A program made the translations under genes and the position numbers. Below the pieces are notes generated by a model. That model was not told where the DNA came from. It searched no databases and saw only the letters and a list, made by a program, of their open reading frames with translations. From Candidatus Hadarchaeales archaeon (lineage in GTDB: Archaea > Hadarchaeota > Hadarchaeia > Hadarchaeales > WYZ-LMO6), in assembly GCA_038851755.1 (NCBI GenBank), contig JAWCKR010000022.1:1-19582 (forward strand): 19,582 nucleotides of DNA, in the 5' to 3' direction. How positions within the stretch are numbered: the first letter of the stretch is position 1; each line of letters begins with the position of its first letter. Positions 1-17,494 of this stretch are shown one piece after another.

Positions 1-1
1 G

Positions 2-1051: not shown

Positions 1052-1743
1052 GGGGAAAGGTGGCCTTCACCGTGGACCTGGAGGAGGATGCGCCCCCCTT
1101 CCTGCGCACCTGGAGGGGGATGGAGGAAGGTCTTCCCGCCCTGCTGGAGGTGCTGGAGGAAGCGGGGGTGAGGGCCACCTTCTTCTCCACCGCCGAGGCC
1201 GCTGGGAGGCTTCCTAAGGGGTTGAGGGGGCACGAGGTAGGCTGTCACGGTTTGCGCCACGAGAGACTGGACCACCTCCCTCCTGGTGAGCGGAGGAGGA
1301 GGGTGAGGGAGGCCACGGAGAGGATGAGGAGACTGGGATGGAGGCCCAGGGGCTTCAGGGCCCCCAACTTCAGGCCCACCACCGAGGTCCTGGAGGAGGT
1401 GAGAAAGCTGGGGTACTCCTACGACTCTTCCCTCGCCGCCTACAAGTTCTACGGGGGTCTCAGGCTTCCAGACCTCCCGGAGTTCCCCAACACCCTTCCC
1501 TCCAGCGCTCTCCGCCTCCCCCTACCCCTCTCCAGGAGGATGGTGGGATGGTGTGTGCGCCACCTTCCCCTCACCGTGCTGGACTACCACCCCTGGGAGG
1601 CCGTGAGGATGGAGGGGGTGAGGTGGGACCTGAGGTTCTCCACGGGAGAAACCTCCCTCCGCAGGTTGAGGGAGCTGCTGAGCTGGCTGAAGGGTGAAGG
1701 AGTAGAGTTCGTGACCCTCGCGGAGATGCTCCCTTCTTTATAG
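1048..1743 (+). CDS. Polysaccharide deacetylase (CE4/NodB-homology family)
   Basis: Motifs TVDLEED, ATFF, HEVGCHG-x2-H, GFRAP, YSYDSS, YHPWE. The TTG start overlaps the integrase TGA (TTGA) and has GAGGAG upstream. Confidence 0.88.
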   Translation: MRGKVAFTVDLEEDAPPFLRTWRGMEEGLPALLEVLEEAGVRATFFSTAEAAGRLPKGLRGHEVGCHGLRHERLDHLPPGERRRRVREATERMRRLGWRPRGFRAPNFRPTTEVLEEVRKLGYSYDSSLAAYKFYGGLRLPDLPEFPNTLPSSALRLPLPLSRRMVGWCVRHLPLTVLDYHPWEAVRMEGVRWDLRFSTGETSLRRLRELLSWLKGEGVEFVTLAEMLPSL

Positions 1744-1764
1744 AGGAGGGAGAACTCTGAAAGG

Positions 1765-2160
1765 ATGGTGACCCCCAAGAGCAGAGGGACCAGGTGGGAG
1801 TACAGGGTGGCCCACAGGTTCGAGCGCTGGGGCTACGAGTGGAGGAGGTCCGGGAGCTCCCTGGGGGTCTACGACCTGCTCATCACGAAGGGGGGAAGGC
1901 CGCAGTTCCTGGTCTCCTGCAAGAAGACCATGGGTGACCGCCTCTACATTCCCCTGGAGGAGGTGGAGGAGCTGAGGAGGGAGGCGAGGGGGATGGGGGC
2001 CAGGCCCCTCGTGTGCTTCGGCTTCCGCAGGACCTCCCCCCTGGTGTGCGAGCTGGGGAGGCTCAGGAGGAGCGGGGGGGAGAGCTACAGGCTGGAGCGC
2101 GGGGACGGGGAGCCTCTGGACGAGTGGCTGGGGAGGAGGGAAAGGTGCAGGAAGGCCTGA
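1765..2160 (+). CDS. hjc: Hjc-like Holliday junction resolvase (PD-(D/E)xK nuclease)
   Basis: 131 aa with RG-x3-E, GY-x2-RRSGSS, YDLL and ..SCKKT, followed by LYIPLEEVEEL...GARP. This follows the archaeal Hjc pattern, but the ExK motif reads SCK. Confidence 0.7.
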   Translation: MVTPKSRGTRWEYRVAHRFERWGYEWRRSGSSLGVYDLLITKGGRPQFLVSCKKTMGDRLYIPLEEVEELRREARGMGARPLVCFGFRRTSPLVCELGRLRRSGGESYRLERGDGEPLDEWLGRRERCRKA

Positions 2161-3785
2161 AGGAGTTCTTCGAGCACCCCCTGCTCAGGCCGAGGACCCT
2201 GTGGTACAGGAGGTACCAGGAGGAGATCATGGGTGAGGCGGTGAGGAGGAACACCATGGTGATCCTCCCCACCGCCCTGGGCAAGACGGTGATCTCCATC
2301 CTGGTGGCGGTCCAGCTCCTCCACAGGTACCGGAAGGGCAAGGTGCTGGTCATGGCCCCCACCCGTCCCCTGGTGGTCCAGCACGCCAGGAACTTCGTTT
2401 CCTCCGTGCGCCTCCTCCCCTCCGAGCCCAGGGTCCTCACGGGGAGGGTGGACCCGGGGAGGAGGGAAAGGGCCTGGAGGGAAGGGAGGGTCTTCTTCGC
2501 CACCCCAGAGGTGGTGAGGAACGACCTGGAGGAGGGGAGGCTGGGCCTGGGGGAGTTCGTGCTCCTGGTCTTCGACGAGTGCCACAGGGCGGTGAAGGAG
2601 TACGCCTACACCCTGGTGGCCCAGCGCTACCTGCAGGAGTGCCCCTACCCCCTGGTGCTTGGGCTCACCGCCTCCCCTGGATCCTCCCCGGAGAGGATAG
2701 AGGCCATCTGCAGGGCGCTGGGGATAGAGCACGTGGAGTACCGCACCGAGCTCGATGAGGACGTGAGCCCCTATGTTCATCCCGTGGAGGTGACCTGGCA
2801 AAAGGTCCCCCTCCCCCCGGAGTACTCCTCCCTCTCCTCCCTCCTGAGGGAGATGGCGGGGGAGAAGGTGAGGTGGCTGTGGGAGCACGGTTACCTGAGG
2901 GTCCCCCCCAGCAGGGTGACCAGGAAGATCCTGCTCGGGGTGGGGGAGGAACTGAGGAGGAGGCTGGCGGCGGCCAGGGAGAAGGGGCCCCTCTTCACAG
3001 CCCTGAGGTGCCAGTCCCTCTCCCTCACCCTTTCCCACGCCCTGGAGCTGCTGGAATCCCAGGGCCCCTCCGCCCTGCGTTCCTTCCTGGAGAGGGTGGA
3101 GGGGAAGAGCGGGGAGAGGAGGACCTACTCCCTCCTCCTCAGGGACCCGAGGTACGCCAGGCTGAAGGAGCTGCTGGCCTCCCTTCCCGAGCATCCCAAG
3201 ATGGAGAGGCTGCTGGCGGAGGTGAGAACCCAGCTGGAGTCCTCCCGGGAGTCCAGGGTGCTGGTCTTCGCCCAGTACAGGGACACGGCCTCCAGGCTGG
3301 TGGAGCACCTCTCCCGAGGCCTGCCGGGGGTGAGGGTGGAGAGGTTCGTGGGGCAGTCCAGCAGGGCCAGGGACCTGGGGTTGAAGCAGAGGGAGCAGCT
3401 GGAGGTGCTGGACAGGTTCAGGAGGGGGGAGACCAGGGTCCTGGTGGGCACCTCCATAGCGGAGGAGGGTCTGGACATCCCCTCCGTGGACCTGGTGGTC
3501 TTCTACGAGCCCGTCCCCTCCGAGATAAGGTACATCCAGCGCAAGGGGAGGACGGGGCGCTTCTCCTTCGGGAGGGTGGTCATCCTCCTCTCCGAGTCCA
3601 GGTTTGACCTGGCCTCCCACTTCTCCTCCCGCAGGAAGGTCAAGCGCATGCAGTCCCTCGTGAGGGAGGTGGAGCGCAGGCTCCAGCCCATCCTCCGCCT
3701 CTCCGTCCCCACGCCCGATCCCATGACGGAGGAGGAACTCTCGGATCCCCTCAGGGACGCGCCCTTCCAGGTGGAGGAGGGCTAG
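2145..3785 (+). CDS. Hef/FANCM (Mph1)-type SF2 DEAH-box helicase lacking the C-terminal ERCC4 nuclease
   Basis: Motifs RRYQ, LPTALGKT, APTRPLVVQH, DECHRA..YAY, GLTASPG, HPKM, FVGQ, EEGLDIP, QRKGRTGR. Start placed at GTG 2145 after a GGAGG SD; the ORF-track extension from 2013 overlaps hjc. Confidence 0.9.
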   Translation: MQEGLKEFFEHPLLRPRTLWYRRYQEEIMGEAVRRNTMVILPTALGKTVISILVAVQLLHRYRKGKVLVMAPTRPLVVQHARNFVSSVRLLPSEPRVLTGRVDPGRRERAWREGRVFFATPEVVRNDLEEGRLGLGEFVLLVFDECHRAVKEYAYTLVAQRYLQECPYPLVLGLTASPGSSPERIEAICRALGIEHVEYRTELDEDVSPYVHPVEVTWQKVPLPPEYSSLSSLLREMAGEKVRWLWEHGYLRVPPSRVTRKILLGVGEELRRRLAAAREKGPLFTALRCQSLSLTLSHALELLESQGPSALRSFLERVEGKSGERRTYSLLLRDPRYARLKELLASLPEHPKMERLLAEVRTQLESSRESRVLVFAQYRDTASRLVEHLSRGLPGVRVERFVGQSSRARDLGLKQREQLEVLDRFRRGETRVLVGTSIAEEGLDIPSVDLVVFYEPVPSEIRYIQRKGRTGRFSFGRVVILLSESRFDLASHFSSRRKVKRMQSLVREVERRLQPILRLSVPTPDPMTEEELSDPLRDAPFQVEEG

Positions 3786-4459
3786 CCCCTCCTGGCCCCC
3801 CTCACCACGTCTTCCGCCGCGGCCCTCCAGTCTTTAGCCTTCACCACGCTGGAGGCCAGGAGCACCCCCTCCGCCCCCAGCTCCAGCGCCATCCTCACAT
3901 CCTCCCCGGTGGAGATGCCCGCCCCGCACAGGACCCTCACGCTCGGGTCCACCCCCTTCACCAGCTTCACGGCCTCGCTCACCACCTCCGGCCTCACCTT
4001 GGAGACGGCCCTCCCCGTCCCTATCAGCTCGGGGGGCTCCACGGCCACGAAGTCGGGACGGAAGGAGGCCACCTTCCTGCAGAGTTCGGGGTCAGCCGCG
4101 CACACCACGCTCACCAGACCCAGCTCCCTCAGCCTCTTCACGCAGGCCTCTATCCCCTCCACCTCCAGGGGATGCTCGGAGTGGTTGATCAGGGAGCCCA
4201 CCGCCCCCGTCTCCTTCACCGCCTCCGGGAGGACCCAGCCCGTGTGGGCACCGGGGGTGAGGGGGTCCACGTGCTGGGCCAGGACGGGAAGTCCCACCTC
4301 CGCCACGCTCCTGAGGTCGGGGGCCTGAGGTGCCACGGCCACGCACACTTCCTCGCGCTGGGCGGCGGAGGAGAGGACCCTGGAGAGCTCCACGGCCTTC
4401 CTCCCCGTGGCCTCCGCGTAGGCCTTGAAGTTCACGATGACCAGCGGGGTCCTCAGCAT
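3782..4459 (-). CDS. tpiA: Triosephosphate isomerase, archaeal type (225 aa)
   Basis: Motifs VNFKAY, AQHVD, GAHTG, LINHSE, AVEPPELIGTG, LCGAGI, GVLLAS. ATG at 4459 gives the typical archaeal length. Confidence 0.96.
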   Translation of the reverse strand: MLRTPLVIVNFKAYAEATGRKAVELSRVLSSAAQREEVCVAVAPQAPDLRSVAEVGLPVLAQHVDPLTPGAHTGWVLPEAVKETGAVGSLINHSEHPLEVEGIEACVKRLRELGLVSVVCAADPELCRKVASFRPDFVAVEPPELIGTGRAVSKVRPEVVSEAVKLVKGVDPSVRVLCGAGISTGEDVRMALELGAEGVLLASSVVKAKDWRAAAEDVVRGARRG

Positions 4460-4491
4460 CACTCCCTTACTTTTCCCGGTTAAAAAACGGT

Positions 4492-5577
4492 TCAGAGGTC
4501 GCTGCGCAGGAACTTCCCGAGCACCTCGGCCCTGGGGGAGAGCCTGTAGAGCTTGATGTTCTTCCCGCTGTAGACGGTCTCTATCACCCCCTTCTGCAGG
4601 AGGTGCTCCAGGTGGCGGGTGAGGTTCTTGGGGGCGATGTTGATCTTCCTGGCGATCTCCCTGATGGAGGCCACCTCCTTCCTGGCCAGGAACTTCAGGG
4701 CCCGGAACTTCAGTTCCTCCCCGAAGATCTCCTTCACCGTGGCGAAGAGCTCCTCCCTCACCTGAGGGGTTTCGGGGGGTTTGTTGCCCACCTCGGAGAG
4801 GGAGCCGGGGGTGGAGACGAAGCAGCAGCTCTTGTCCCCCTTGGCTATGCACTTCGTCTCCTCCATGATCATCTCCTTACCCAGCAGACCGGAGATCAGG
4901 CCGGAGAGGTAGCCCCTGAAGAACTGGCTCTTGCTCTCCTTTCCCTTCCCCTTGAAGGGGAGGCACTCGAAGAGGTCCTGCATCTCCACCTCCACCGTTT
5001 CACCGTTGAACTTCTTGATGGTGGGGAAGCCCCAGCCCTTCGCTATCCTTTCCGTGAGCACCAGGTCCAGGGCCTGTGCCCCGCTCAGCCCGAGCTGGGA
5101 GACCTTCCTGGCCTTCCTCAGCCCCGCCTTCACCCCCATCCTGAAGAAGGAGAGCTTGTTGTTCTCCACCTGGTTGAAGTTCTGCAGGAGGTCCCCGAAG
5201 GTCTCCACCCTGAGGGTGATGGCCCTCTCCTCCATCACCATCAGGGGGAAGTGCAGCTTGTCCACCAGCAGCCCCTCGGAGGTCCCGGGCTGGGAAAAGA
5301 CCTCCTTCACCCCCTCCACCTTCGCCAGTTCCTTCTCGAACTCCTCAGGCGTGATCTCCGAGTGGGTGAGGTCGGCGAAGAAGGAGAAGTGCCTGAGGGG
5401 GGATCGGGGTTCGGTGGTGAGGTTTCCGGCCACGATCTCCACTCCCTTCTCCTTGGCCCTCCAGGTGATCTCGGCGAGGGTGCTCACGAGGTCTTCGGTT
5501 AAAACTAGGTATTCGACGACCTTCCTGCCGGGCAGATATGCCCCCATGGGCAGATACTTGGGACCCCCCACCTTCAT
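4492..5577 (-). CDS. ACT-like + V4R + C-terminal ArsR-type wHTH regulator
   Basis: N-terminal ACT-like segment ending EKELAKVEGVKEV. V4R signature GWG...FEC...FFRGYLSG...EETKCIAKGDKSCCF. C-terminal HTH SIREIARKINIAPKNLTRHLEHL..KGVI...YRL. The start could alternatively be ATG 5547. Confidence 0.82.
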   Translation of the reverse strand: MKVGGPKYLPMGAYLPGRKVVEYLVLTEDLVSTLAEITWRAKEKGVEIVAGNLTTEPRSPLRHFSFFADLTHSEITPEEFEKELAKVEGVKEVFSQPGTSEGLLVDKLHFPLMVMEERAITLRVETFGDLLQNFNQVENNKLSFFRMGVKAGLRKARKVSQLGLSGAQALDLVLTERIAKGWGFPTIKKFNGETVEVEMQDLFECLPFKGKGKESKSQFFRGYLSGLISGLLGKEMIMEETKCIAKGDKSCCFVSTPGSLSEVGNKPPETPQVREELFATVKEIFGEELKFRALKFLARKEVASIREIARKINIAPKNLTRHLEHLLQKGVIETVYSGKNIKLYRLSPRAEVLGKFLRSDL

Positions 5578-5610
5578 CCCCCGACCCCACTTGATTATTT
5601 TTCGTCCCTC

Positions 5611-6342: not shown

Positions 6343-6398
6343 GACTGAACTGAGCGCCAGAAAAGGGCGCCAGAACTATTTTCAGTGGACGCCTTTAT
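6343..6398 (+). promoter_or_regulatory. Repeated operator/promoter block, copy 1
   Basis: 6343-6388 matches 11140-11185 at 45/46 nt. Contains GCGCCAGAA twice, terminal inverted ACTGAA/TTCAGT, then CGC-CTTTAT (TATA-like). Confidence 0.7.
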
Positions 6399-6420
6399 CC
6401 CGGGGCTCTGGTCTTCCCTC

Positions 6421-6530
6421 GGTATGGCCGGGAAAACCGGAGAGGCCCGGGGGACTAAAGGGGAGCCCCCGTTAAAGGGAGGTCCCTTCTGGGACCGACC
6501 GATGATAGCCCCGCAAAGGAGGGAAGAAAC
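6421..6530 (+). ncRNA. Candidate structured cis-regulatory 5' leader (riboswitch-like), copy 1
   Basis: 6443-6512 is identical to 11242-11311. Contains the hairpin GGTCCC-TTCT-GGGACC and long-range GGGG/CCCC pairing, and ends just before the SD GGAGG. Confidence 0.5.
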
Positions 6531-7559
6531 ATGAAAGCGAACAGGAAGCTGGCAGCAGCCTTGTCCCTGGCAATGATAATGGCGACCCTGGGAACGATGG
6601 CGCCGGCAGTCGCAGGGGAAGGAAACAACGGATCCAAAACAATCACTACCAGCGTCACAATACCCCCGGGAGGAGGCAACCCTCCCATCGTGAAGTGCAA
6701 GTGGGAGCAGGACCTCACCACGGACCTGGAGGACGGTGACCCCTCGCACCTCACCCCCGGAGGCCAGTTCCTCCCGCCCTGCGTGTACCAGGGTAAGAAG
6801 ACCATCCAGTACTGGGCGGTGGTGACGGACCCGGAGGGTACGGCCACCGTGGAGGGGGTCTACGTGGACGTCTACCACCCCGACAGGAGCTTCAAGTACG
6901 AGGTGATCCTGACCAAGGTGAACAAGGAGTGCGGCATAGCGGCCTTCCAGGCCGCCTACCAGGCCGGTCTGATCACCTTCGCCGATGGCCACGACTACGA
7001 GGAGGTCCTGGACGAGCTCCAGGAGTGCCTGGCCGACGTCTGGATGGGGGTGGCGGACCTGGACTACCACCAGATGGCCGGAGACTACAGAGTGGAGGCC
7101 TACGCCTTTGACCACAGCAACAACCTCTCTGTCCCGCTGGTCAACACGTTCCTGTACGTGCCCTGTGCCTGCTGCGAGTTCGACTTCACCTCGGTCGACT
7201 ACGGCAGCGTGGACGTGTGCACGTTCAAGTGGATAGGTGGGGACAACGTCTTCGGTACCTACGACAAGCCCACCGTCAGGAACATCGGGAACGTGCCCTG
7301 CCAGATCGTGGTGGAGCAGGACGACATGGGCATGGGCCAGGACTACAACGGCAACTGGAACGTGGAGTTCGGGGCCAGGCTGGGCTGGAACGGTGCGTCC
7401 GTGATCTACGACCCATACGATGAGGTCGTGCTGCCTGACGTGCTGCCCAACTGCAACACCCAGAAGCTCGACTTCGGCATCCACGTGAAGAAGGTCCTGC
7501 CCCCCGAGTCTTACGTCGGGACGATGTGGCTCAGCTGCCAGCCGGCGCAGGCGCCCTAG
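6531..7559 (+). CDS. Secreted Cys-rich beta-sandwich protein; putative fibre/surface subunit
   Basis: Sec signal peptide MKANRKLAAALSLAMIMATLGTMAPAVA, strong SD, strongly GC3-biased codons, 11 Cys, acidic composition, Ig-like VRNIGNVP and a terminal YVGTMWL strand. No membrane anchor. Confidence 0.7.
   Translation: MKANRKLAAALSLAMIMATLGTMAPAVAGEGNNGSKTITTSVTIPPGGGNPPIVKCKWEQDLTTDLEDGDPSHLTPGGQFLPPCVYQGKKTIQYWAVVTDPEGTATVEGVYVDVYHPDRSFKYEVILTKVNKECGIAAFQAAYQAGLITFADGHDYEEVLDELQECLADVWMGVADLDYHQMAGDYRVEAYAFDHSNNLSVPLVNTFLYVPCACCEFDFTSVDYGSVDVCTFKWIGGDNVFGTYDKPTVRNIGNVPCQIVVEQDDMGMGQDYNGNWNVEFGARLGWNGASVIYDPYDEVVLPDVLPNCNTQKLDFGIHVKKVLPPESYVGTMWLSCQPAQAP
6668..7531 (+). repeat. 864-bp direct repeat, copy 1
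   Basis: Aligned by eye to 8982-9845 (offset 2314). Only two differences seen: 7330G/9644A and 7396C/9710T. Confidence 0.95.
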
Positions 7560-7587
7560 GCAGAGGGACCAAACATGCAACCGAACA

Positions 7588-7639
7588 CCCAATCCGTACA
7601 CCCGCGCGGGCGTATGGGTTGGGGTACCTTTTTATTTTT
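7588..7639 (+). terminator. Long hairpin plus T-tract terminator/attenuator after the subunit gene
   Basis: CCCAATCCGTACACCCG-CG-CGGGCGTATGGGTTGGG stem with G-U pairs, followed by TTTTTATTTTT. Confidence 0.7.
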
Positions 7640-7679
7640 GCGGTCAAGTGGAAAGATCATCGACGAGAGAACAGTCAGG

Positions 7680-8867
7680 ATGGTAGTTTTCGTTTTGTTG
7701 ACATTTTCGCTTTGTTCCGCATTTCTCCCTCCCGTTTGTGCGGCTAAGCTTGCCCTGGTGCCCAACCAGCTGAAGATAGAGAACGCCATGAGAGGTGGAG
7801 AGTACGAAAGGATAGTTACTGTAATCACCGACGAGAACGCCAGAGTCTTCCTCCGGACCGAGGGCGTGGCGGGAGGATGGATCAGCGTGTACGAGTTTGA
7901 GAATCAGACGGCCCCGGTGGAGGAGGTAATCGCCGACGAGAATGGGAGGAGCGTCCTCTTGATCAGGATTAAAATCCCTTCCGACGCCAGCAACGGCACC
8001 TACACGGCATCCCTCATCGCGGAGGTCATCCTCTCCGGGGCTGAGAACTCGGGGGGAACAGGAGTGGGACTCAGGGCCTCGGTGGGAATCACCCTTGAGG
8101 TCACCGGGACCCAGATTCTGAGTGGGGCGGTGGAGTACATCATGGTCGAAGACACCGAGGTGGGCTATCCCCTAAGGATAGGGGTGAGGTTCCGGAACAC
8201 CGGGAACGTGGTCGCAACACCGGAAATCAGGACCACCATAACCAAGGACGGGTCCCCCTTGGACAATTTTGTCCGCGCCGAGGTTGGTGTGGCTCCTGAG
8301 AAGACCGAGACCATCACGGTGGAGTGGGACACTACGGGAAGGGAAACCGGGAGGTACGAGGCGAGCGTGGAGGTCATGCTGGGAGGGGAGGTGCTGGCGG
8401 CCGAGAATCAAGAGTTCGAGCTGTTGCCTTTCGGGACGCTGAGCAGGAGGGGGGAGCTGGTTGAGCTGGAGTATGATGGTGAGCCTTCGGTGGGCAGTAA
8501 GATAAGAATTCTAGCCACCTTCCTGAACACTGGCGAAATCGATACAAGGGCGAGGTTGGTGGGCGAGGTTCATGTTGACGGCGTCTTCACCGACAACCTC
8601 TCGAGCGATGAGAGGTGGGTGGAGCCCGGAGAAAAAGTCACGCTGAGAGCCTACTTGGGGATTGAAAAGACCGGTCGCTACGTGGTGGAGGGCTGGGTGG
8701 AATACGATGGCAAAGTGACCGAAGTAAAGGAGCTTTCCTTCAAAGTAGGGAGCGAGCCTGGCTCTGTCCTCCCCGTGGTGGTGATGGTGTTCGCAGCATT
8801 GCTGGTGGGGGGTGGACTGGTTGGGGGTAAGACCCTCTTCAGAAAGTTTTCACCGAAGGCTAAGTAG
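7680..8867 (+). CDS. Membrane-anchored multi-Ig-domain protein (DUF916/WxL-interacting or PapD-chaperone-like N-domain plus CARDB-like domains)
   Basis: Signal peptide from ATG 7680. IKIPSDASNGTYTASL..., GTGVGLRASVGITLEVTG, two FxNTG(N/E) Ig motifs, C-terminal TM plus basic tail. The family assignment is a resemblance only. Confidence 0.6.
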   Translation: MVVFVLLTFSLCSAFLPPVCAAKLALVPNQLKIENAMRGGEYERIVTVITDENARVFLRTEGVAGGWISVYEFENQTAPVEEVIADENGRSVLLIRIKIPSDASNGTYTASLIAEVILSGAENSGGTGVGLRASVGITLEVTGTQILSGAVEYIMVEDTEVGYPLRIGVRFRNTGNVVATPEIRTTITKDGSPLDNFVRAEVGVAPEKTETITVEWDTTGRETGRYEASVEVMLGGEVLAAENQEFELLPFGTLSRRGELVELEYDGEPSVGSKIRILATFLNTGEIDTRARLVGEVHVDGVFTDNLSSDERWVEPGEKVTLRAYLGIEKTGRYVVEGWVEYDGKVTEVKELSFKVGSEPGSVLPVVVMVFAALLVGGGLVGGKTLFRKFSPKAK

Positions 8868-11145
8868 CTCCAGGGAACAAGTCTTGGTGCTCTTGGTGTT
8901 GTGGGTCTCTACGACCTTGGTGATGGCATCAGCAGTGGCTGCTGAAGAAATCACAGTGGTTACTTCGGTCTTCATAGCAAAGGGAGGAGGCAACCCTCCC
9001 ATCGTGAAGTGCAAGTGGGAGCAGGACCTCACCACGGACCTGGAGGACGGTGACCCCTCGCACCTCACCCCCGGAGGCCAGTTCCTCCCGCCCTGCGTGT
9101 ACCAGGGTAAGAAGACCATCCAGTACTGGGCGGTGGTGACGGACCCGGAGGGTACGGCCACCGTGGAGGGGGTCTACGTGGACGTCTACCACCCCGACAG
9201 GAGCTTCAAGTACGAGGTGATCCTGACCAAGGTGAACAAGGAGTGCGGCATAGCGGCCTTCCAGGCCGCCTACCAGGCCGGTCTGATCACCTTCGCCGAT
9301 GGCCACGACTACGAGGAGGTCCTGGACGAGCTCCAGGAGTGCCTGGCCGACGTCTGGATGGGGGTGGCGGACCTGGACTACCACCAGATGGCCGGAGACT
9401 ACAGAGTGGAGGCCTACGCCTTTGACCACAGCAACAACCTCTCTGTCCCGCTGGTCAACACGTTCCTGTACGTGCCCTGTGCCTGCTGCGAGTTCGACTT
9501 CACCTCGGTCGACTACGGCAGCGTGGACGTGTGCACGTTCAAGTGGATAGGTGGGGACAACGTCTTCGGTACCTACGACAAGCCCACCGTCAGGAACATC
9601 GGGAACGTGCCCTGCCAGATCGTGGTGGAGCAGGACGACATGGACATGGGCCAGGACTACAACGGCAACTGGAACGTGGAGTTCGGGGCCAGGCTGGGCT
9701 GGAACGGTGTGTCCGTGATCTACGACCCATACGATGAGGTCGTGCTGCCTGACGTGCTGCCCAACTGCAACACCCAGAAGCTCGACTTCGGCATCCACGT
9801 GAAGAAGGTCCTGCCCCCCGAGTCTTACGTCGGGACGATGTGGCTTGGGTGCAGATCTGACTTTGCTGTGAACTCCAGTGGGACCATTTGGATACCCCAC
9901 GAGTGGGAGTGTTTAGAGGTGTGGACGGGGAGTGCCTCAACGGGCGTTTACGGTTTACCCGACATTCCCGGTGCGCCGGTAGGATGGTCCCTGTTGGAGA
10001 TGTGGACTGAGGGCGCCTCTTCCCCGGCTCGTTGGGGGCTCCTGGAACTCTCAGCGGGCCTTCCGGGGGGCTCCGGCTCCAGCGCATCGAGGGAATGGCG
10101 TCTGGTAGATTCATGTGGAGGCGGAGCCCAAGCCACGACTGAGGTCGTTTCTACAGGAGATTCCAAGTCTCCTGGGGTCCAGGGTCTGGGCCTCACGAAC
10201 TGGATGAGCGAACCCACGACCACCCTTACCGTGGAGACCCTTCCCATAAGAGCGGGGGTCTACGTGGACGACCTTTACTGGGGGAGGGCTCCACAGACGA
10301 GGGAGGTGGAGGCAGGCGTTCACACGGTTTTCTTTGGGGATTGTCCTGACTACCTGACTCCCGCACCTCAAACCTCGATTATACCGCAGGGTGAGAGTAG
10401 AACCGTTACTGGAATCTACACGGAGATACCGGAGGAGTTGATTGAAAGCGAATCGTCCCCAGTTCATCTCCCCTCCATAAGAGCTGGCGAGAGCGTGGCC
10501 GTAGAGCTGGAGGGCACGGCTATCACTGAGATAACGATGGGGTTGAGGAGGGGGGTAGAGAACGTGTGGTTGATGGTTCAGCAGCTGACCGACCTGCCCG
10601 CCGGTTGGGTGGTAGGGGCCCCAGGGCTCCCCTATCGGTATCTGAACATAGTGGTTGAGAATCTAATCGATCCATACCTTGACACCGCGCTGATAGTTTT
10701 CAGGGTGGAGAAGTCTTGGGTGGAGGAAGCTGACATAGACCCAGCCACTGTGGTCCTTTGGAGGTGGAATCCTTCCAGCAAGGAGTGGGAATCTTTGTAT
10801 ACCGTGATGATAGGAGAGGACGGCACCCGCTACACCTATCGTGCGGAGTCTTCGGATCTGTCCCTGTTTTCCGTATCGGGGTTACCCGTGAGTCTTACTT
10901 CGCTGACACTGCCGGAGCCTCCGGGGATAATGGTGGTCGCATTGCTGGCAGGGACCTTCGTAATGGCGTTGGCAGTAGTGTCGATTACGGGAAGCTTGGT
11001 CAAGAGGGGGATCATGGCGCACCGTATTCGTGGTGCAAAAGCTTGGAGGGTGAGGTGGTGGGTTCTCGCCTGGATGGCGTACTTCGTGGAGAGAATACGG
11101 ACCGTGGGCGCTTCAATCCTCTCTGGAGACATCTCTCCCGACTGA
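8812..11145 (+). CDS. Membrane-anchored surface protein: copy of the 6531 subunit domain + Trp-repeat linker + PEGA-like + PGF-pre-PGF domain + C-terminal TM
   Basis: Signal peptide ending ASAVAA; 288 aa near-identical to the 6531 protein. TLTVETLP..AGVYVDD..WG.AP....AGVHTV is PEGA-like. YRYLNI...FRVEKSWV...IDPATVVLWRW...WESL...YTYRAESSDLSLFSVSG is PGF-pre-PGF. Start uncertain (8812, 8884 or 8887). Confidence 0.78.
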   Translation: MDWLGVRPSSESFHRRLSSSREQVLVLLVLWVSTTLVMASAVAAEEITVVTSVFIAKGGGNPPIVKCKWEQDLTTDLEDGDPSHLTPGGQFLPPCVYQGKKTIQYWAVVTDPEGTATVEGVYVDVYHPDRSFKYEVILTKVNKECGIAAFQAAYQAGLITFADGHDYEEVLDELQECLADVWMGVADLDYHQMAGDYRVEAYAFDHSNNLSVPLVNTFLYVPCACCEFDFTSVDYGSVDVCTFKWIGGDNVFGTYDKPTVRNIGNVPCQIVVEQDDMDMGQDYNGNWNVEFGARLGWNGVSVIYDPYDEVVLPDVLPNCNTQKLDFGIHVKKVLPPESYVGTMWLGCRSDFAVNSSGTIWIPHEWECLEVWTGSASTGVYGLPDIPGAPVGWSLLEMWTEGASSPARWGLLELSAGLPGGSGSSASREWRLVDSCGGGAQATTEVVSTGDSKSPGVQGLGLTNWMSEPTTTLTVETLPIRAGVYVDDLYWGRAPQTREVEAGVHTVFFGDCPDYLTPAPQTSIIPQGESRTVTGIYTEIPEELIESESSPVHLPSIRAGESVAVELEGTAITEITMGLRRGVENVWLMVQQLTDLPAGWVVGAPGLPYRYLNIVVENLIDPYLDTALIVFRVEKSWVEEADIDPATVVLWRWNPSSKEWESLYTVMIGEDGTRYTYRAESSDLSLFSVSGLPVSLTSLTLPEPPGIMVVALLAGTFVMALAVVSITGSLVKRGIMAHRIRGAKAWRVRWWVLAWMAYFVERIRTVGASILSGDISPD
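8982..9845 (+). repeat. 864-bp direct repeat, copy 2
   Basis: Near-identical to 6668-7531, with two non-synonymous differences (G>D, A>V). Confidence 0.95.
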
Positions 11146-11195
11146 ACTGAGCGCCAGAAAAAGGCGCCAGAACTATTTTCAGTGGTCGCTTTTAC
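11140..11195 (+). promoter_or_regulatory. Repeated operator/promoter block, copy 2
   Basis: 45/46 identity to 6343-6388, then CGC-TTTTAC. Overlaps the stop codon of the upstream gene. Confidence 0.7.
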
Positions 11196-11218
11196 CCCAG
11201 CTTTCAGGCGGGCTTTGA

Positions 11219-11333
11219 GGCCATGGCGGAGGAAACCGAGAAGGCCCGGGGGACTAAAGGGGAGCCCCCGTTAAAGGGAGGTCCCTTCTGGGACCGACCG
11301 ATGATAGCCCCATCAAAAAGGAGGTGAAAGGAG
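11219..11333 (+). ncRNA. Candidate structured cis-regulatory 5' leader (riboswitch-like), copy 2
   Basis: 70 nt identical to copy 1, followed by the SD GGAGGTGA and the ATG at 11334. Confidence 0.5.
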
Positions 11334-11858
11334 ATGAGAACAGCGATGGCCGTGTTTGGAGCACTCATGTTGGCTCTCGCTCTGACCGGTGTGGCTTTCG
11401 CCCACTGGACCGATTCCCTGTACATCAGCGGCACGGTCAACACGGGAACCTTTGGAGCTGAGCTCAGCGTGGGGACGGGTCATGATAGTGAGCCACCCTG
11501 CAAGGATGTCAGCTCTATTTCGGGCACCCTCTCGGAGGACGGAAAGACTATAACAGTGACGGTCACCAACGCCTATCCCTGTATCGACTACTACCTGCCC
11601 ATAGATGTGCACTGCACGGGTACCGTTCCCCTGATCATAGAGAGCATAGTGATAGACAGGGGAACCCTGCCGGAGAACACCACGCTGGAGATTATCCCGG
11701 CGATGATAGATTTCCCCTTAGAAGTGGGTACGCAGTTACACTACTGTGATGCGGCTTACGGGGAGTTGCACGTGCACCTGGACGAGGACGCAGAGGAGAA
11801 CACAAACTACACCTTCAGCGTAACCATCAACGTGGTGCAGTGGAACTACTACGACTGA
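11334..11858 (+). CDS. SipW-cognate signal peptide protein; TasA/CalY-like putative major fibre subunit
   Basis: h-region then GVAFA|HWTDSLYISGTVNTG, the SipW-class pattern A-x-(F/W)-(T/S)-D...G. Also NAYP, GTVP and a terminal VVQWN strand. Confidence 0.8.
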   Translation: MRTAMAVFGALMLALALTGVAFAHWTDSLYISGTVNTGTFGAELSVGTGHDSEPPCKDVSSISGTLSEDGKTITVTVTNAYPCIDYYLPIDVHCTGTVPLIIESIVIDRGTLPENTTLEIIPAMIDFPLEVGTQLHYCDAAYGELHVHLDEDAEENTNYTFSVTINVVQWNYYD

Positions 11859-11890
11859 GGGGTTCTAGGAGATTTGAAGGGGGAGTACAG

Positions 11891-13366
11891 TTGAGGAACA
11901 CAAAGCTAGCCGTACTGCCGATACTGCTGCTGGTAGGGACGCTCCTGACCGGTGTGGCCTTCGCCCACTGGTCGGAGTCCCTCCTGCTCACGGGGAGCGT
12001 GGCCACGGGATTGTTGGACTGGCAGTTCACTGGCGTGGGCCACTTGGACCCAGGCCCACCCGACAGCGTGAGGGACTACCACTGCCGGGACAACTTCGAG
12101 GGGCCTCCTCCCTACTACTGGCAGGGGGACAAGGATGTGGGCTACACCACAGCGGTGATAACGGAGGATCCCCACGTCATCGAGGTGACCTTGAACAATG
12201 TGTACCCCAGCTACTTCAACTCCATAAGTGTGTACGCAAAGAACACGGGGAGCATTCCCTTGATCATAGAGAGGGCCATCATCGATGGGAATGTGGTGAT
12301 GGACTTCGACGAGAAAGTCAGGCTGGACCTCGATGGGGACGGGAAGGATGACTTGGAGATATGGTGGAAGGCCAACATCTTTGGCGTTCAGCTGGAGCCA
12401 GGGGAAGATGGACCTCAGACGAGCTTCTGGGTTCACGTTCTGCAGGATGCGCCTAGGGGTGAGTCCCTGGAGTTCACCATCGAGCTGGTGGCGGTGCAGT
12501 GGAATTACTCCGAGCATCCCCCCGCACCGAAGCCCACCATAGGACTTTCGCCACCAATTCTGACCTTCAGCGCCGTACTCGGTGGACCCAATCCACTGCC
12601 GCAGAACTTTACCGTTTCCAACCTGGGTCCTGCCGGGACCACGCTTAACTGGACGGTCACGGATAATGCAGCCTGGCTTTCGCTCTCCCCGACGAGCGGT
12701 TCCCTGCCAGGAGGGAGTTCCGAGCCTATGGCTGCGAACGTGAGCATCGCTGGGCTGGGAGTAGGGACATACTATGCCACGGTCACGGTTTCGGATCCCA
12801 ACGCCACGAACGATCCGCAGACTGCAACCGTGGTGCTGGTGATCTCTGCACCCAGTGTCATAGCGGATAACTTGGACGTCAATGGCGGGCTCGACACGTC
12901 GGGAGGATACTGGTGTGGAAATAATTGGTGTGCTAACCCACACACCCTGACGCCCTCAGATTTGGAAAGTCTGGAGAACAGCAACAACATTCGGTATCAA
13001 AGCTATGGCGTGTGGAGCGAGGACTATTCCAACAACGAGTACCTCGATTTAGAGTTCGAAAACATCCCCTGCGGGGCCACGGTGAACAGCGCTGTGCTCA
13101 AGTTCGAGTGGCAGAGAACCACGAAGGTGGATAATGCCAGGCTGAGGATATGGAACGGCTCCAGCTGGAGTGCGCACTACTATCTTCCCATGCCAACTCC
13201 CAACAATGACACCACCGTGACGATAGACCTGAAAGGACTCTACGGCATAGACACTTGCTACGAGGTCAACAACTTGAAAATCAGATTCCAGGCTTCAAGC
13301 AGCGACTGGTCCAATGCTTATACCAAGCACGATTGGGTCGAGGTTCAAGTGACCTATACACTGTGA
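11891..13366 (+). CDS. TasA-like domain + BACON/Ig-like domain + C-terminal beta domain; putative minor or tip adhesin subunit
   Basis: TTG 11891 after a GGGGAG SD. GVAFA|HWSESLLLTGSVATG, NVYP, NTGSIP, AVQWN; DLDGDGKDD Ca-loop; WTVTDNAAWLSLSPTSGSL is BACON-like. Confidence 0.75.
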   Translation: MRNTKLAVLPILLLVGTLLTGVAFAHWSESLLLTGSVATGLLDWQFTGVGHLDPGPPDSVRDYHCRDNFEGPPPYYWQGDKDVGYTTAVITEDPHVIEVTLNNVYPSYFNSISVYAKNTGSIPLIIERAIIDGNVVMDFDEKVRLDLDGDGKDDLEIWWKANIFGVQLEPGEDGPQTSFWVHVLQDAPRGESLEFTIELVAVQWNYSEHPPAPKPTIGLSPPILTFSAVLGGPNPLPQNFTVSNLGPAGTTLNWTVTDNAAWLSLSPTSGSLPGGSSEPMAANVSIAGLGVGTYYATVTVSDPNATNDPQTATVVLVISAPSVIADNLDVNGGLDTSGGYWCGNNWCANPHTLTPSDLESLENSNNIRYQSYGVWSEDYSNNEYLDLEFENIPCGATVNSAVLKFEWQRTTKVDNARLRIWNGSSWSAHYYLPMPTPNNDTTVTIDLKGLYGIDTCYEVNNLKIRFQASSSDWSNAYTKHDWVEVQVTYTL

Positions 13367-13379
13367 ACAAACCAAACCA

Positions 13380-13396
13380 TTTTTGTTTTTATTTTT
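13380..13396 (+). terminator. Archaeal oligo-T terminator
   Basis: TTTTTGTTTTTATTTTT about 14 nt after the stop at 13366. Confidence 0.6.
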
Positions 13397-13425
13397 CGTA
13401 AAAACCCGGTCAAAACCGTGATGGA

Positions 13426-15333
13426 ATGAAAGAAGAAGGAAGGGCGGCGGGAAGGAAGGCGGCTTTCGTCCTAGTCCTTACCCTCTTCAACTACTTCTTC
13501 CTGAACCTCTTTCGTCCTGGGGGATGGATGGCCTATCTCCTGCCCTCCCTTTGCTGGGGTTTCCTTGCCCTGGTTGCCCTGAAGCTTTTTGGCTTGAGCA
13601 GGATAAGGTCCTGGTTTAACCCCAAGGTATCCCTAACTGCCGCGTGTGTTTCAATCCTTTATGTGCTGGTCCTACTGAACTTGGGCCTCTTCACGGGATT
13701 CGGGAAGAGTCCCTACTCCTTCGCTCCTTTGCCTCTCCTCACCAATGCGTTACTTGCCTTTTCCACTTTGATGGGCATGGAGTTCTCCCGGGCATACTTG
13801 GTAAAGACGGTGGGCAGGAACAGACCCTTCCTGGTCTTCGGGCTTGTCACCCTCCTGTACGCCCTGTTGGGTATTTCCACCGCCAGACTCTTTCAGCTTG
13901 GAGATCCCCTAGCCGCTACCAAGTTCTTTGGGGTCGGTTTTCTGCCCCTCTTAGCGGAAAGCCTTCTTGTCACCCATCTGGCGCTCTTGGGCGGTCCGGT
14001 GGCCTCCCTGGCCTACCGCGCCCCCCTCACCATCTTCTGGTGGTTCTCCCCCATCCTCCCCCGTCTCTCGTGGGGGATGGAGGCCTTTCTAGGGGTGATG
14101 GTACCGACGGCCGGGTTCTTCTTGATCAACCTCTACACTTCCCCTTTCACCCTGCGGAGGCAGGGTTTAACCCGGGAACCAGGAGGATTCGGCGGGTTCA
14201 GGAAATCCCAAGCCAGAGGTCTGGTGTTAACCTCGGTTCTCTGTGTCCTGATGGTGTGGGTTTCCACGGGGCTCCTGGGCCTCAGGGTGACGACCGTCTT
14301 GAGCGGGAGTATGAGTCCCAGCTTGGAGGTGGGGGATGTGGTGGTGGTGAGGGAGGTTTCCCCCTCATCCGTGGGGCCAGGTGACGTGATTCAGTTCGGG
14401 CGAGAAGGGGAGGCTGTAATCCACAGGGTGGTGGAGGTAAGGCAGGAGGGAGGAAACTGGTTCTTCATCACTAAGGGAGATGCCAATTCTTCCCCAGATC
14501 CCACCCCCGTCTCTTCCTCTCAGCTGATGGGAAAGATGGTCCTGCAGATTCCCAAGGTTGGGTGGATAGTCATCTTCGTGAAGGAGGCTACCTTGAGCCT
14601 GTGGTCGTTCTTGCAGGAGCACTTGGCTGTCTTCCTTTCTTTGCCCATCCTGACGATTTCTTTTCTCCTAGCCCGCAAATACAGGAGGGGGCGGGTGGGA
14701 TGGAGCAGAAGGGTCCCCCCCGAGAGATGGAGTGCTCCCTTTTCCCTCCTCATGCTCTTCCTAGCGGTGGGAGGAATAGCCTACGCCCACTGGAGCGAGC
14801 CTCTCTACGTGTCGGGCACGGTGGAGACGGGAAGCTGGGGGTCAGAGATAGAATGTTACGGGGTCTGGAGCTTCCCGTGCTGGCAGGTGAACTCCTGGCT
14901 TTCGGAGGACAACCGCACCCTCAACCTACGCTACTGTTACACCTATCCCTGCGATACGGTCTTGGTCGTTCTCAAGATTCACAACATGAAAACCGTACCT
15001 GTATTCTTCGAGGGCTTCCGGTACCAGTTCTCCCCTTCCTCCATGGAGGACGGTTTCCACATTTACGAGTGGTTCTTCGGTCCATACGGTGATGGTTGCC
15101 AGCAGGGAGACTGCTGCTGGTGGAAGGACCATCTCTGCGGGGACGGATGCGGAGGTCTTGATGAGAAGACTTGCTGCTGGATGAGTTCTTGCTGTCGCAG
15201 ACCGCCCATCCAGCTCGATCCCTGCCAGAGCCTGATAGCCGTGGTGGAGCTGAAAAGTTGCACTTGGTCCTGCGGTTTCACCCTCTCCATAAGCATAGAG
15301 GATGTATGCTGGGCCTGCCTGGGAAGAGCGTGA
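13426..15333 (+). CDS. sipW: Polytopic membrane domain + SipW/Sec11-type signal peptidase I (S26B) fused to a C-terminal Cys-rich TasA-like substrate
   Basis: VLSGSMSP..VGD, VIHRV (Ser/His dyad), TKGDAN. Downstream and in frame: GGIAYA|HWSEPLYVSGTVETG, then LSEDNRTL, YTYPC, KTVP, IQLDPCQ, which parallel the 11334 protein. Confidence 0.85.
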   Translation: MKEEGRAAGRKAAFVLVLTLFNYFFLNLFRPGGWMAYLLPSLCWGFLALVALKLFGLSRIRSWFNPKVSLTAACVSILYVLVLLNLGLFTGFGKSPYSFAPLPLLTNALLAFSTLMGMEFSRAYLVKTVGRNRPFLVFGLVTLLYALLGISTARLFQLGDPLAATKFFGVGFLPLLAESLLVTHLALLGGPVASLAYRAPLTIFWWFSPILPRLSWGMEAFLGVMVPTAGFFLINLYTSPFTLRRQGLTREPGGFGGFRKSQARGLVLTSVLCVLMVWVSTGLLGLRVTTVLSGSMSPSLEVGDVVVVREVSPSSVGPGDVIQFGREGEAVIHRVVEVRQEGGNWFFITKGDANSSPDPTPVSSSQLMGKMVLQIPKVGWIVIFVKEATLSLWSFLQEHLAVFLSLPILTISFLLARKYRRGRVGWSRRVPPERWSAPFSLLMLFLAVGGIAYAHWSEPLYVSGTVETGSWGSEIECYGVWSFPCWQVNSWLSEDNRTLNLRYCYTYPCDTVLVVLKIHNMKTVPVFFEGFRYQFSPSSMEDGFHIYEWFFGPYGDGCQQGDCCWWKDHLCGDGCGGLDEKTCCWMSSCCRRPPIQLDPCQSLIAVVELKSCTWSCGFTLSISIEDVCWACLGRA

Positions 15334-15373
15334 GGGCATGTACCTATCTATTTAGGAGGAGGAGTGAAGGAGG

Positions 15374-16432
15374 ATGGTGGGGCTAAAGCGTTTCTTGAAG
15401 AGGTTGGGAAAGGGCTCCTTCCTAATCATCTCTTTTTTCCTCTTGCTTGACGCCCTCTTGCTTCTGGGGTACTCCCATTCTAGGCCAGAGACGGAGAACC
15501 GAACCCAGGTCCTTCTCTCTTACCGGCACCGCGGGGAATACGATTACGTGGCGCATTTGAAGCCCAACGAACTCTACGACAACAGGCTGGAACTCTCAGC
15601 CGGGGAGGGAACGGTTTACCTTCCCCTGCTGGAGAACCTCTCCCTCACCTTCCGCTATACCTTCTTCTCCACGGAAAAGGGCACTCTTTCTTCCTCCTAT
15701 CGGGTGGAGGTGGTGCTCTCCACCCAGGCTTGGAGCAAGAGCTATCCCTGGCTGGAAAACTCAGTCCAGGCCCCGGGAAACACCTTAGAGTTTTCCACGG
15801 CTTTGGTTCTCGACCCTTCTTGGGTGGAAGAGAGGATGGAGGCGATAAGCTGGGAAACGGGTACTTCCACCCGCAGCTACGACGTGCAGGTGAGGACATC
15901 GGTCCACACGGTTGCCCAGACGGGGAAGGGCACGGTGGACGAATCCTTCTCACCTCAGCTCACCCTTCACTTCGTGAGGGACCCAGCCAAGGGGGAGTAC
16001 CTCACGGTGGAGGGACTGGAGGAAAGGAAGGAGGGAGCGATTATTCATCCAGAGACTCTTCACCGTGGAGAGATAGGAACCCTCAGGAGGATTTCCTATG
16101 TACTGCTGGCGTTCGCACTGTTGTGCGTTTTTCTCACGGGCTGGGCCTACTTCTCGGCTGAGAAACCAAGGAAGGTGGAGGAGCTGGTGGAGCCCCTCCG
16201 GGAGCTGGTGGTGGAACTCTCGGAGGAGCCGAAGGTCCCGGCAGGGGGGACCACGGTGAGGGTGGGAAGGATGGAGGACCTGGGCAAGATTGCCGAAGGG
16301 CTGATGAAGCCGGTCCTGCACGTGAGGCTCCCCTCACACGATGGTGAAGAGCACCTTTTCTTGGTCCTTGACGGCTCCGTGAGGTACGAGCACCGGGTGA
16401 AGGCGCTGGGGGGCATAGTGGTAAAGAGGTAA
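15374..16432 (+). CDS. DUF5305-like membrane protein
   Basis: N-terminal TM, Y..HRGEYDYVA.LKPNELY, extracellular beta domain, second TM, and a cytoplasmic V..MEDL.KIAE.L.KPVLH...DGSVRY tail. This family is typically found next to S26 peptidases. Confidence 0.65.
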   Translation: MVGLKRFLKRLGKGSFLIISFFLLLDALLLLGYSHSRPETENRTQVLLSYRHRGEYDYVAHLKPNELYDNRLELSAGEGTVYLPLLENLSLTFRYTFFSTEKGTLSSSYRVEVVLSTQAWSKSYPWLENSVQAPGNTLEFSTALVLDPSWVEERMEAISWETGTSTRSYDVQVRTSVHTVAQTGKGTVDESFSPQLTLHFVRDPAKGEYLTVEGLEERKEGAIIHPETLHRGEIGTLRRISYVLLAFALLCVFLTGWAYFSAEKPRKVEELVEPLRELVVELSEEPKVPAGGTTVRVGRMEDLGKIAEGLMKPVLHVRLPSHDGEEHLFLVLDGSVRYEHRVKALGGIVVKR

Positions 16433-16489
16433 CACCTTTTCACTCCTGGCGTCTTTTGTTTCCCAAGAGAACCGTGGTTTACCCATCCC

Positions 16490-16495
16490 TTATAA
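16490..16495 (+). promoter_or_regulatory. TATA box (TTATAA) for a probably leaderless protease gene
   Basis: Lies about 24 nt upstream of ATG 16519, and there is no SD before that ATG. Confidence 0.55.
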
Positions 16496-16518
16496 CACCC
16501 GCCATCAAAAATTATTCG

Positions 16519-17334
16519 ATGAAACTCCTGGCGGGTGTGCTGGCCTTTCTCCTTTTGCTGGCCTTCCCCCTCCCCGTCCTGGCGGCCTCTGGGGAGGAGG
16601 ACCCCCTCCCGCAGGAGTGGGTGGGGAAGCACAAGATCGTGGAACACTTCGGGAAGCTGAGCAGGATGGTCCTCGTCCGCTATGTGGGTGAGAGACTCTC
16701 CGAGCCCTCGGAGGTGGTGGAGATAGGGGACCCGGACAACGATGGGGCCGTGGATGCTTACGCGCTTCTGGGTGTGTGGTGGGATCTCTCCAAGTATCCC
16801 GGCGGGGTTCCCTACACGGTGAACCCCACTGTGGCGGCCAGGTCCTACAGGTTGAAGGAGGGTGAAGTGGTGGGGGCCGTCCAGAGGGCCTTCGAGAACT
16901 GGGACGATGCGGTGGAGAGGGAGCTGTACAACAACAGGGTCACGGTGAACTGGAAGGCCAGCGCCAGCCCCAGGCGTCCGGACTACCGGAACGTGGTTAC
17001 GTGGGGAAGGCTGCAGAAGGGGGTGGTGGCCGTCACCTACCTCTGGTACCTCACGGATACGGGAGAACTCGTGGACGCGGATATAGTGTTTAACTCATAC
17101 TACAGATGGGGGATAGACCCCGACGGCGAGGGCACGGGGTACCAGCTGAGCGGGGCTTTCGACCTCCAGAACATAGCCACCCATGAGACCGGTCACTTCA
17201 CGGGCCTCGACGACCTCTATGACGAGCCCTACTGGGCCATGACCATGTACGGCTATGCGGACTTCGGAGAGACGTGCAAGGTTTCCTTGGAGCCTGGGGA
17301 TGTGGCTGGGGTCAGGGCGATTTACGGGTCCTAG
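16519..17334 (+). CDS. Secreted matrixin-like (metzincin, M10-like) zinc metalloprotease
   Basis: Signal peptide MKLLAGVLAFLLLLAFPLPVLA; AFENWD, DADIVFN, FDLQNIATHETGHFTGLDD, Met-turn TMY, LEPGDVAGVRAIYG. Confidence 0.9.
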   Translation: MKLLAGVLAFLLLLAFPLPVLAASGEEDPLPQEWVGKHKIVEHFGKLSRMVLVRYVGERLSEPSEVVEIGDPDNDGAVDAYALLGVWWDLSKYPGGVPYTVNPTVAARSYRLKEGEVVGAVQRAFENWDDAVERELYNNRVTVNWKASASPRRPDYRNVVTWGRLQKGVVAVTYLWYLTDTGELVDADIVFNSYYRWGIDPDGEGTGYQLSGAFDLQNIATHETGHFTGLDDLYDEPYWAMTMYGYADFGETCKVSLEPGDVAGVRAIYGS

Positions 17335-17401
17335 GTGTGCGGGTAAGAGGCCTGAGGACCGCTGAAGCCGTTGCAATGGTTTCCGAGCACCGAACAATCT
17401 T

Positions 17402-17430
17402 CCAGAACAAACTTCAGTAGTCGCTTTTAC
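17402..17430 (+). promoter_or_regulatory. Degenerate third copy of the operator/promoter block
   Basis: CCAGAACAAACTTCAGTAGTCGCTTTTAC matches 11167-11195 at 25/29 positions. Confidence 0.62.
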
Positions 17431-17494
17431 GTGCCCTCCTGAAACTTCCTCCGAGACGTAGCTTCGAATCGAACTGGGTGGGGGTAGGTCAAGG

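Follow-up and report, generated by a model that had tools for sequence, protein, structure and literature searches.

An 864-bp domain tract shared by a free and a membrane-anchored archaeal surface protein, probably homogenised by gene conversion

We analysed a contig of Candidatus Hadarchaeales archaeon (assembly GCA_038851755.1, contig JAWCKR010000022.1), whose whole stretch of 19,582 nt is called the window below. Two of its genes carry the same domain: gene A (6531-7559, + strand) encodes a secreted protein of 342 residues made of this domain alone, and gene C (8812-11145, + strand) a membrane-anchored protein of 777 residues that bears it on a longer chain. In the best reading, A and C are older paralogues that were probably homogenised by gene conversion. 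Gene B, placed between them (7575-8867, + strand), encodes a conserved partner of A.

The shared tract and its origin

The two genes contain an ungapped direct repeat, 6668-7531 (+ strand, residues 47-333 of A) against 8982-9845 (+ strand, residues 58-345 of C), offset by 2314 nt. It is identical at 862 of 864 bases; a repeat this long and exact cannot have arisen by chance. An earlier note on this DNA had reported such a repeat with two differences, and it is indeed present: position 7330 has G where 9644 has A, and 7396 has C where 9710 has T. Both mismatches are nonsynonymous (Gly267 of A for Asp278 of C, Ala289 for Val300), and both copies are in frame, in the same codon phase.

In protein A, a signal peptide and a conserved N-terminal strand are joined through a Gly linker to two beta-sandwich domains; there is no anchor. 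Protein C likewise begins with a signal peptide and a strand of its own (ITVVTSVFI), then has the domain; behind it come W-x-L-L-E-x-W repeats, a PEGA-like segment (a weak match), a PGF-pre-PGF domain and a membrane helix, and the chain ends in a basic tail. The PGF-pre-PGF domain occupies 10480-10881 (+ strand, residues 557-690) and matches TIGR04213 with 76.7 bits against a cut-off of 28. The hydrophobic helix, read from the translation, lies at 10924-10992 (+ strand, approximately residues 705-727); NCBIfam detects no PGF-CTERM sorting signal at this C-terminus, where the helix is followed by a 50-residue basic tail instead. One copy of the domain is thus free and the other anchored, as had been claimed. 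The start codon of C is uncertain: the GTG at 8812 overlaps gene B by 56 nt.

The tract begins at the Gly linker and reaches as far as the last strand of the domain. Its earlier description as almost exactly the mature domain fits most of A (residues 47-333 of 342), but two parts stay outside: the conserved N-terminal strand (residues 36-44; KTITTSVTI, 6636-6662, + strand, following the family consensus) and the last 8 residues of A. That the strand is excluded from the converted tract had not been noticed before. The edges of the tract are sharp and lie inside homologous but diverged open reading frames (ORFs): 15 of 33 bases match between A and C to its left, and 6 of 15 to its right. At the protein level, 5 of the 11 left-flank residues are identical (KTITTSVTIPP in A, ITVVTSVFIAK in C, then a shared GGGNPP), and on the right WLSC of A faces WLGC of C. 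The flanks are therefore, as first described, homologous as proteins and diverged as DNA. With VTIPPGGG and WLSC.PA, the flanks of A look like the free forms found elsewhere, for example homologues P0002 and P0004, and the right flank of C (WLGC...) continues collinearly with another homologue, P0121.

P0121 is the orthologue of C: the two are collinear over 710 residues with 69% identity (about 80% in the domain, 62% in the tail), and P0121 keeps both the PGF-pre-PGF domain (74.3 bits) and the hydrophobic C-terminal helix. A maximum-likelihood tree of 43 domains unites A and C as sisters with 100/100 support and leaves P0121 outside. Since P0121 has the architecture of C yet falls outside the A+C pair, the fusion predates the identity of A and C; it is the only relative with this architecture in the tree, and no free counterpart of its own was seen. 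A similar fusion occurs in a Methanomicrobiales metagenome-assembled genome (MAG; locus L012), where the domain is followed by a long extension, with no named domain by NCBIfam, and a C-terminal hydrophobic helix. A one-off recent duplication, named by the earlier note as what would overturn its reading, is not borne out.

Related loci were collected by scanning contigs with the pattern W[NMD]Vx[FY]DAR[LM]G. Since FGARLG, the version in the window, falls outside this pattern, the scan missed the closest relatives. Among these loci, the Thermoplasmatales MAG L007 has an independent identical tract, 914 bp with 0 mismatches (8616-9529 against 10203-11116). It is common to a 577-residue form with an additional N-terminal payload and a 413-residue free form of the same domain family; its flanks are approximately 80-85% identical and then unrelated, and the N-terminal strand is again left outside. 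A B-type gene follows downstream at 11404. Together, the diverged but homologous flanks, the outgroup position of P0121 and the L007 case favour the earlier idea of an older paralogy kept alike by conversion.

We propose that the 864-bp stretch was recently copied between A and C by non-allelic gene conversion, each gene retaining its own signal peptide, N-terminal strand and C-terminus. The spacing of 2.3 kb would ease conversion, which may have been favoured because A and C have partners in common that both must fit. Concerted evolution by gene conversion is a general phenomenon among tandem surface-protein paralogues, and the case described here has its usual marks: an identical core tract, diverged flanks and paralogues grouping within a genome. 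It differs in that A and C do not share one architecture, and in that the tract is exactly the shared folded domain minus the N-terminal strand, in two distant lineages.

We consider it likely that the repeat is real and a product of conversion. An assembly artefact, in which one copy, or two copies a few percent apart, were traversed twice or merged, or two strains were joined, is improbable. The window is a whole metagenome contig, the 864-bp repeat is longer than short reads, and both identical tracts, here and in L007, come from metagenome assemblies without read support, which counts against our reading. However, the copies differ at two sites, and each lies in a gene of its own that is intact, in frame and properly flanked; an unrelated second assembly shows the same pattern; and variant merging would still need nearly identical copies. 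Separately, P0121 begins 6 residues past the point matching the left edge of the repeat, which would fit a repeat-induced assembly break, though this is only a suggestion.

A single recent and neutral recombination, with close paralogues converting by chance and their identity saying nothing of function, is unlikely. It gains from the short distance between the copies and from a tract that ends where DNA homology ends. A further point speaks for it and equally against conversion as a rule: paralogues in most related loci are only 37-76% identical (L001, L003, L004, L010 and L011). Against such a rule, too, those of L010 and L011 keep separate orthologous lineages in the tree. Conversion may indeed be neutral because, if C only donates a strand, its domain need not be identical. 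Against a single event, identity recurs in the distant lineage of L007 within the same structural limits, Gly linker to last strand, and within-genome sister pairs are also found in L003, L004 and P0002/P0003. The check proposed earlier, whether paralogues cluster within genomes, is thereby answered in the affirmative for A/C and these three pairs but not for L010 and L011: homogenisation appears recurrent, not universal.

Finally, the repeats could act as a recombination switch. A 2314-bp deletion between them would fuse the promoter and signal peptide of A to the anchor of C and remove B, and cells would alternate between secreted and anchored forms. As 864-bp direct repeats in the same frame, they would indeed leave an intact ORF upon deletion. 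Yet no deletion form is seen, P0121 has C's own right flank, and the conserved partner B would be lost; we regard such a switch as very improbable.

Codon usage and the direction of conversion

The tract has a GC content at third codon positions (GC3) of 0.92; the rest of gene C has 0.55 and 0.65, and the first 45 codons of A have 0.64. The contrast with the rest of C that the earlier note had pointed out is thus real, but 0.92 is also the local housekeeping level: four housekeeping genes of the window, coding for an integrase, Hjc, a helicase and a V4R-HTH regulator, have GC3 of 0.91-0.95. Other surface-cluster genes of the window have 0.65-0.81.

In five of six related loci, including loci without an identical tract, the first A-type gene has a higher GC3 than the adjacent B gene, which fits codon selection on an abundant product. 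GC3 therefore leans towards gene A as the donor, though A's own flanks are not GC3-rich, and the earlier proposal of a highly expressed free subunit as the source is only plausible. The phylogeny is blind to the direction of conversion, since domains group by lineage rather than by architecture.

GC-biased conversion was considered as the source of the high GC3 and set aside, both because A-type genes exceed B in relatives without tracts and because 0.92 is the local housekeeping level. Along the window, GC3 forms a step between 1-5600, where these four of the housekeeping-type genes lie and a phage-integrase-family gene sits at 2-1051, and 6500-19500, where the surface cluster has lower values except in the tract.

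The domain family, its partner and a possible WxL-like system

Gene A belongs to no Pfam or NCBIfam family, and 54 A-family members show no consistent Pfam match. It has 201 homologues at E <= 0.001, all unnamed; their named sources include Bathyarchaeia, Methanoregula, Methanoculleus, Methanocalculus and Dehalococcoidia/Chloroflexota. Among the 127 homologues listed, 109 are stand-alone, 15 have an N-terminal payload and a C-terminal domain, and P0121 alone is domain-first and anchored. In relatives including P0125, P0123 and P0124, the domain is fused behind TasA-like, matrixin or vWA domains; P0122 has tandem domain copies, two whole and one partial.

The AlphaFold2 (AF2) model of A has two beta-sandwich domains and a mean predicted local distance difference test (pLDDT) value of 91.8. 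In this monomer model, residues 30-45 have lower confidence, and the conserved N-terminal strand is left unpaired. The family's motif for it, VxTxVxIxxGGG, comes right after the signal peptide, and its T40 is at least 90% conserved. The motif is found in 80 of 85 stand-alone homologues, in none of four TasA-like fusions and in 9 of 17 payload forms. In A and C, alternate residues of the strand (I/V, T, V, I) are the same and the others differ.

Protein B, 430 residues long, has a signal peptide, three immunoglobulin (Ig)-like domains and a C-terminal membrane helix; its AF2 model has a mean pLDDT of 89.5, with the helix at 401-425. In 9 of 13 related loci, the gene next downstream of an A-type gene is of B type. 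Counting the window with these nine, exactly two A-type genes are present in 8 of 10 loci with the A-B order. A-B is thus a conserved cassette, usually with a second A-type gene, and B as a conserved partner is an addition to the earlier note. The order A-type, B-type, second A-type, as in the window, is also seen in three Dehalococcoidales contigs (L010 5675-6644, L011 9595-10335, L013 6655-6974), all of which end inside the second A-type gene.

The B family comprises 3896 representative clusters at E <= 0.001. We compared a profile of 71 members with 177,635 distinct Protein Data Bank (PDB) sequences. Below E 0.05 it matches only Enterococcus faecium WxLIP1 (EfmWxLIP1; 9i25_C, 9i1y_A), with E 1.6e-5 over about 157 aligned residues; the next match has E 0.061. 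Pfam adds sub-threshold hits whose order is the expected one: the end of domain 1 matches WxLIP_PGBD in 9 of 71 members, and domain 2 matches WxLIP_HBD in 13 of 71. In a protein atlas, WxLIP (0.90) is among the nearest named clusters for B, and WxL (0.75, weak) is the nearest for A. B also has a long beta-hairpin (7995-8105, + strand, residues 141-177), whose strands occupy 141-151 and 166-177 in the AF2 model; in the profile alignment it falls on the part of EfmWxLIP1 between its two domains. From these similarities, B appears to be remotely related to WxLIP (DUF916/DUF3324) and could serve the A domain as a membrane-anchored chaperone or receptor.

According to the available part of a preprint of October 2026 (10.64898/2026.10.17.759780), Enterococcus WxL clusters build a pilus in which a small WxL protein polymerises by donating its N-terminal strand, and the chaperone, a membrane-anchored DUF916/DUF3324 protein, contributes a strand from a hairpin. 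The same portion describes tip adhesins with an N-terminal payload and, at the C-terminus, a WxL domain, lacking the donor strand, and a pilus base anchored by a small LPxTG protein that has only the donor strand. In elrABCDE of E. faecalis, ElrD and ElrC are the pilins, ElrE the DUF916-DUF3324 chaperone, ElrA the tip and ElrB the base, as far as the available parts of two sources describe it (10.64898/2026.10.17.759780; PMC10599100). The best structural matches of ElrE are given there as PapD-like chaperones (10.64898/2026.10.17.759780). By the preprint's description of the ElrE donor hairpin, the hairpin of B may be its equivalent.

Because B is a conserved partner of A and its profile matches only EfmWxLIP1, we propose a WxL-like system. 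In it A would be the major secreted subunit, which B would hold or prime at the membrane, and the conserved N-terminal strand of A (T-x-V-x-I, then GGG) would link subunits by strand donation. C, with the same groove-facing strand residues, the same domain and a membrane anchor, would be built in as the cell-proximal subunit and tie the assembly to the membrane, the role of sortase-linked ElrB in Enterococcus. For the scheme as a whole, with A, B and C as subunit, membrane-anchored chaperone and anchored subunit of a system like the WxL pilus, and polymerisation taken by analogy, the case is evenly balanced. That A and B form a WxL-like subunit and chaperone system falls just short of that. 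That C acts as a tether is possible at best, though the earlier idea of the domain as a filament former and C as its nucleator or tether is a reasonable one to draw from the parallel. Equally tentative is the broadest version, an archaeal and Chloroflexota counterpart of the chaperone-guided donor-strand-exchange WxL pilus, with a two-domain subunit and, instead of a sortase-linked base, an anchored subunit whose polymerisation domain is kept identical to that of the shaft by recurrent conversion.

The likeness to the WxL pilus is one of layout. A is secreted, small and limited to the domain and an amphipathic strand at its N-terminus; large A-family forms have the payload-first arrangement that the available part of the preprint gives for tip adhesins (10.64898/2026.10.17.759780); the adjacent multi-Ig partner has a C-terminal membrane helix and is detectably WxLIP-related. 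The usual count, two subunit genes and one partner gene, recalls the commonest WxL cluster, which has one WxLIP and two WxL genes in the part of the survey available (PMC10599100), and a rare form with the domain first and further modules behind it, as in C, is shared as well. The strand motif, kept by nearly all stand-alone forms and by none of the TasA-like fusions, and the pilins CsuE, CfaE and CfaB among the Foldseek matches of A also speak for such a system. The differences lie in the A domain, which is not WxL, spans about 290 residues and has two beta-sandwiches; in the third Ig-like domain of B; in the hosts, archaea and Chloroflexota as opposed to Bacillota; and in the lack of an LPxTG or sortase step. 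Neither an LPxTG base subunit nor a sortase gene is present among the window's ORFs, and anchoring would instead proceed via the membrane helix of C.

Several results weigh against the proposal. None of the 54 A-family members matches the WxL domain (PF13731) at E <= 1, and an A profile finds no relative in the PDB. Foldseek matches of A are loose (AgI/II C-terminal domains, RbmA, CsuE, CfaE and a CfaB fusion), with template modelling (TM) scores of only 0.2-0.33. All Pfam WxLIP matches of B stay below the gathering scores, the best being 25.0 against 28.9 and 19.5 against 27.3. B has three Ig-like domains, not two, and the top 50 Foldseek matches of its whole three-domain model are generic tandem Ig/ASH proteins, with no chaperone-usher chaperone. 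Lastly, the presence of the strand in 9 of 17 payload forms suggests that it is perhaps an ordinary part of the domain.

In a rival scheme, the domain would bind anchored B as a docking or lattice module, in a static surface complex and not a polymer; payload fusions would display enzymes and adhesins, and A and C would stay identical because both bind B. The conserved A-B cassette, payload fusions with vWA, matrixin and TasA-like domains, and the resemblance of the A fold to the adhesin or matrix proteins AgI/II and RbmA are all in keeping with it, as is an earlier WxL/WxLIP platform model, as given in the available part of its source (PMC10599100). It does less well with a mature N-terminus formed by a strongly conserved strand and a Gly linker, unpaired in the monomer model, and the homologous bacterial system is reported as a pilus in the accessible portion of the preprint (10.64898/2026.10.17.759780). 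A static complex is rather unlikely.

Two other assembly systems invite comparison with the proposed WxL-like pathway. Chaperone-usher pili share the proposed donor-strand complementation, and CsuE, CfaE and CfaB among the Foldseek matches of A belong to this comparison; however, there is no usher and no periplasm here, and B is membrane-anchored. Fibres of TasA, the archaeal bundling pilus and AbpX, with a SipW-type peptidase, are encoded next door by genes D, E and F, and their domain is fused to the A domain in relatives. The A domain itself has no sequence similarity to TasA, AbpA or AbpX by the PDB search, in which A has no match whereas D does match AbpX. Unlike the proposed A-B pathway, AbpX polymerises without a chaperone, as far as the available part of its source goes.

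In the part of the preprint available, a screen at Pfam gathering thresholds places the WxL system in Bacillota only (10.64898/2026.10.17.759780). A narrow literature search on the WxL domain in archaea and on WxLIP found no paper on a system of this kind in archaea. The proposal gives a first functional handle on two large uncurated families, A and B, which occur together in Bathyarchaeia, Methanomicrobiales, Thermoplasmatota and Dehalococcoidia, and it suggests that chaperone-assisted strand-exchange assembly perhaps exists outside bacteria with cell walls: if true, cells without peptidoglycan would have a fibre-assembly pathway that is widespread and so far undescribed. The tracts themselves would be a natural case, twice independently, in which conversion holds an assembly domain identical in two proteins whose jobs differ.

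The neighbouring matrix module and other observations

The A-B-C cassette is followed by an AbpX/TasA-type matrix module, and TasA-like proteins and a matrixin are encoded as separate genes in the window. In relatives, a TasA-like domain is fused ahead of the A domain (P0003, P0006, P0113, P0119 and a 522-residue protein of L004, 6538-8106). With the matrixin fusions mentioned above, this suggests that cassette and matrix module are functionally linked.

Gene D (11334-11858, + strand) encodes an AbpX/TasA-superfamily matrix protein of 174 residues, with a phmmer match to AbpX (9sj2_C, E 1.7e-4). D, E and F are mutually similar: gene E (11840-13366) and gene F (13426-15333) carry related N-terminal or C-terminal segments. 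F matches the archaeal signal peptidase I family TIGR02228 with 99 bits against a cut-off of 51.85. Its 635 residues comprise a polytopic membrane region, the SipW-type signal peptidase I and a C-terminal AbpX/TasA-like domain, the latter preceded by its own signal-like segment (AYAHWSEPLYVSGTVETG). The fusion thus places a peptidase and its likely substrate in one chain.

A non-coding element of about 170 nt, promoter and leader, precedes gene A at 6343-6512 (+ strand; repeat families D3 and D5). A second copy (11140-11311, + strand), which opens on the stop codon of C, stands before gene D; the copies are approximately 90-93% identical in alignment. The first is predicted to fold at -84 kcal/mol (z = -3.2 relative to shuffled sequences); Rfam has no match for it, and an Rfam scan of the window gave nothing credible. 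As the element is duplicated before A and D, shared regulation is possible, and A and the AbpX-like D may be co-regulated. Apart from about 155 nt (5') and 28 nt (3'), all of gene A recurs at other places in the locus.

Between the domain and the PEGA-like segment of C stand four short W-x-L-L-E-x-W-like repeats, at about 9880-10100 (residues ~357-430). A search with the C tail found, besides P0121, only one protein (P0128), which shares the PGF-pre-PGF part without the A domain; its residues ~40-130, ahead of that part, hold many EWQLIETWTGT repeats.

Of the remaining genes, G is a DUF5305 protein and H the matrixin. The right end of the cluster (18382-19557) holds a second S26 (S24/S26-type) signal peptidase, joined in one chain to a DUF6114 membrane domain.

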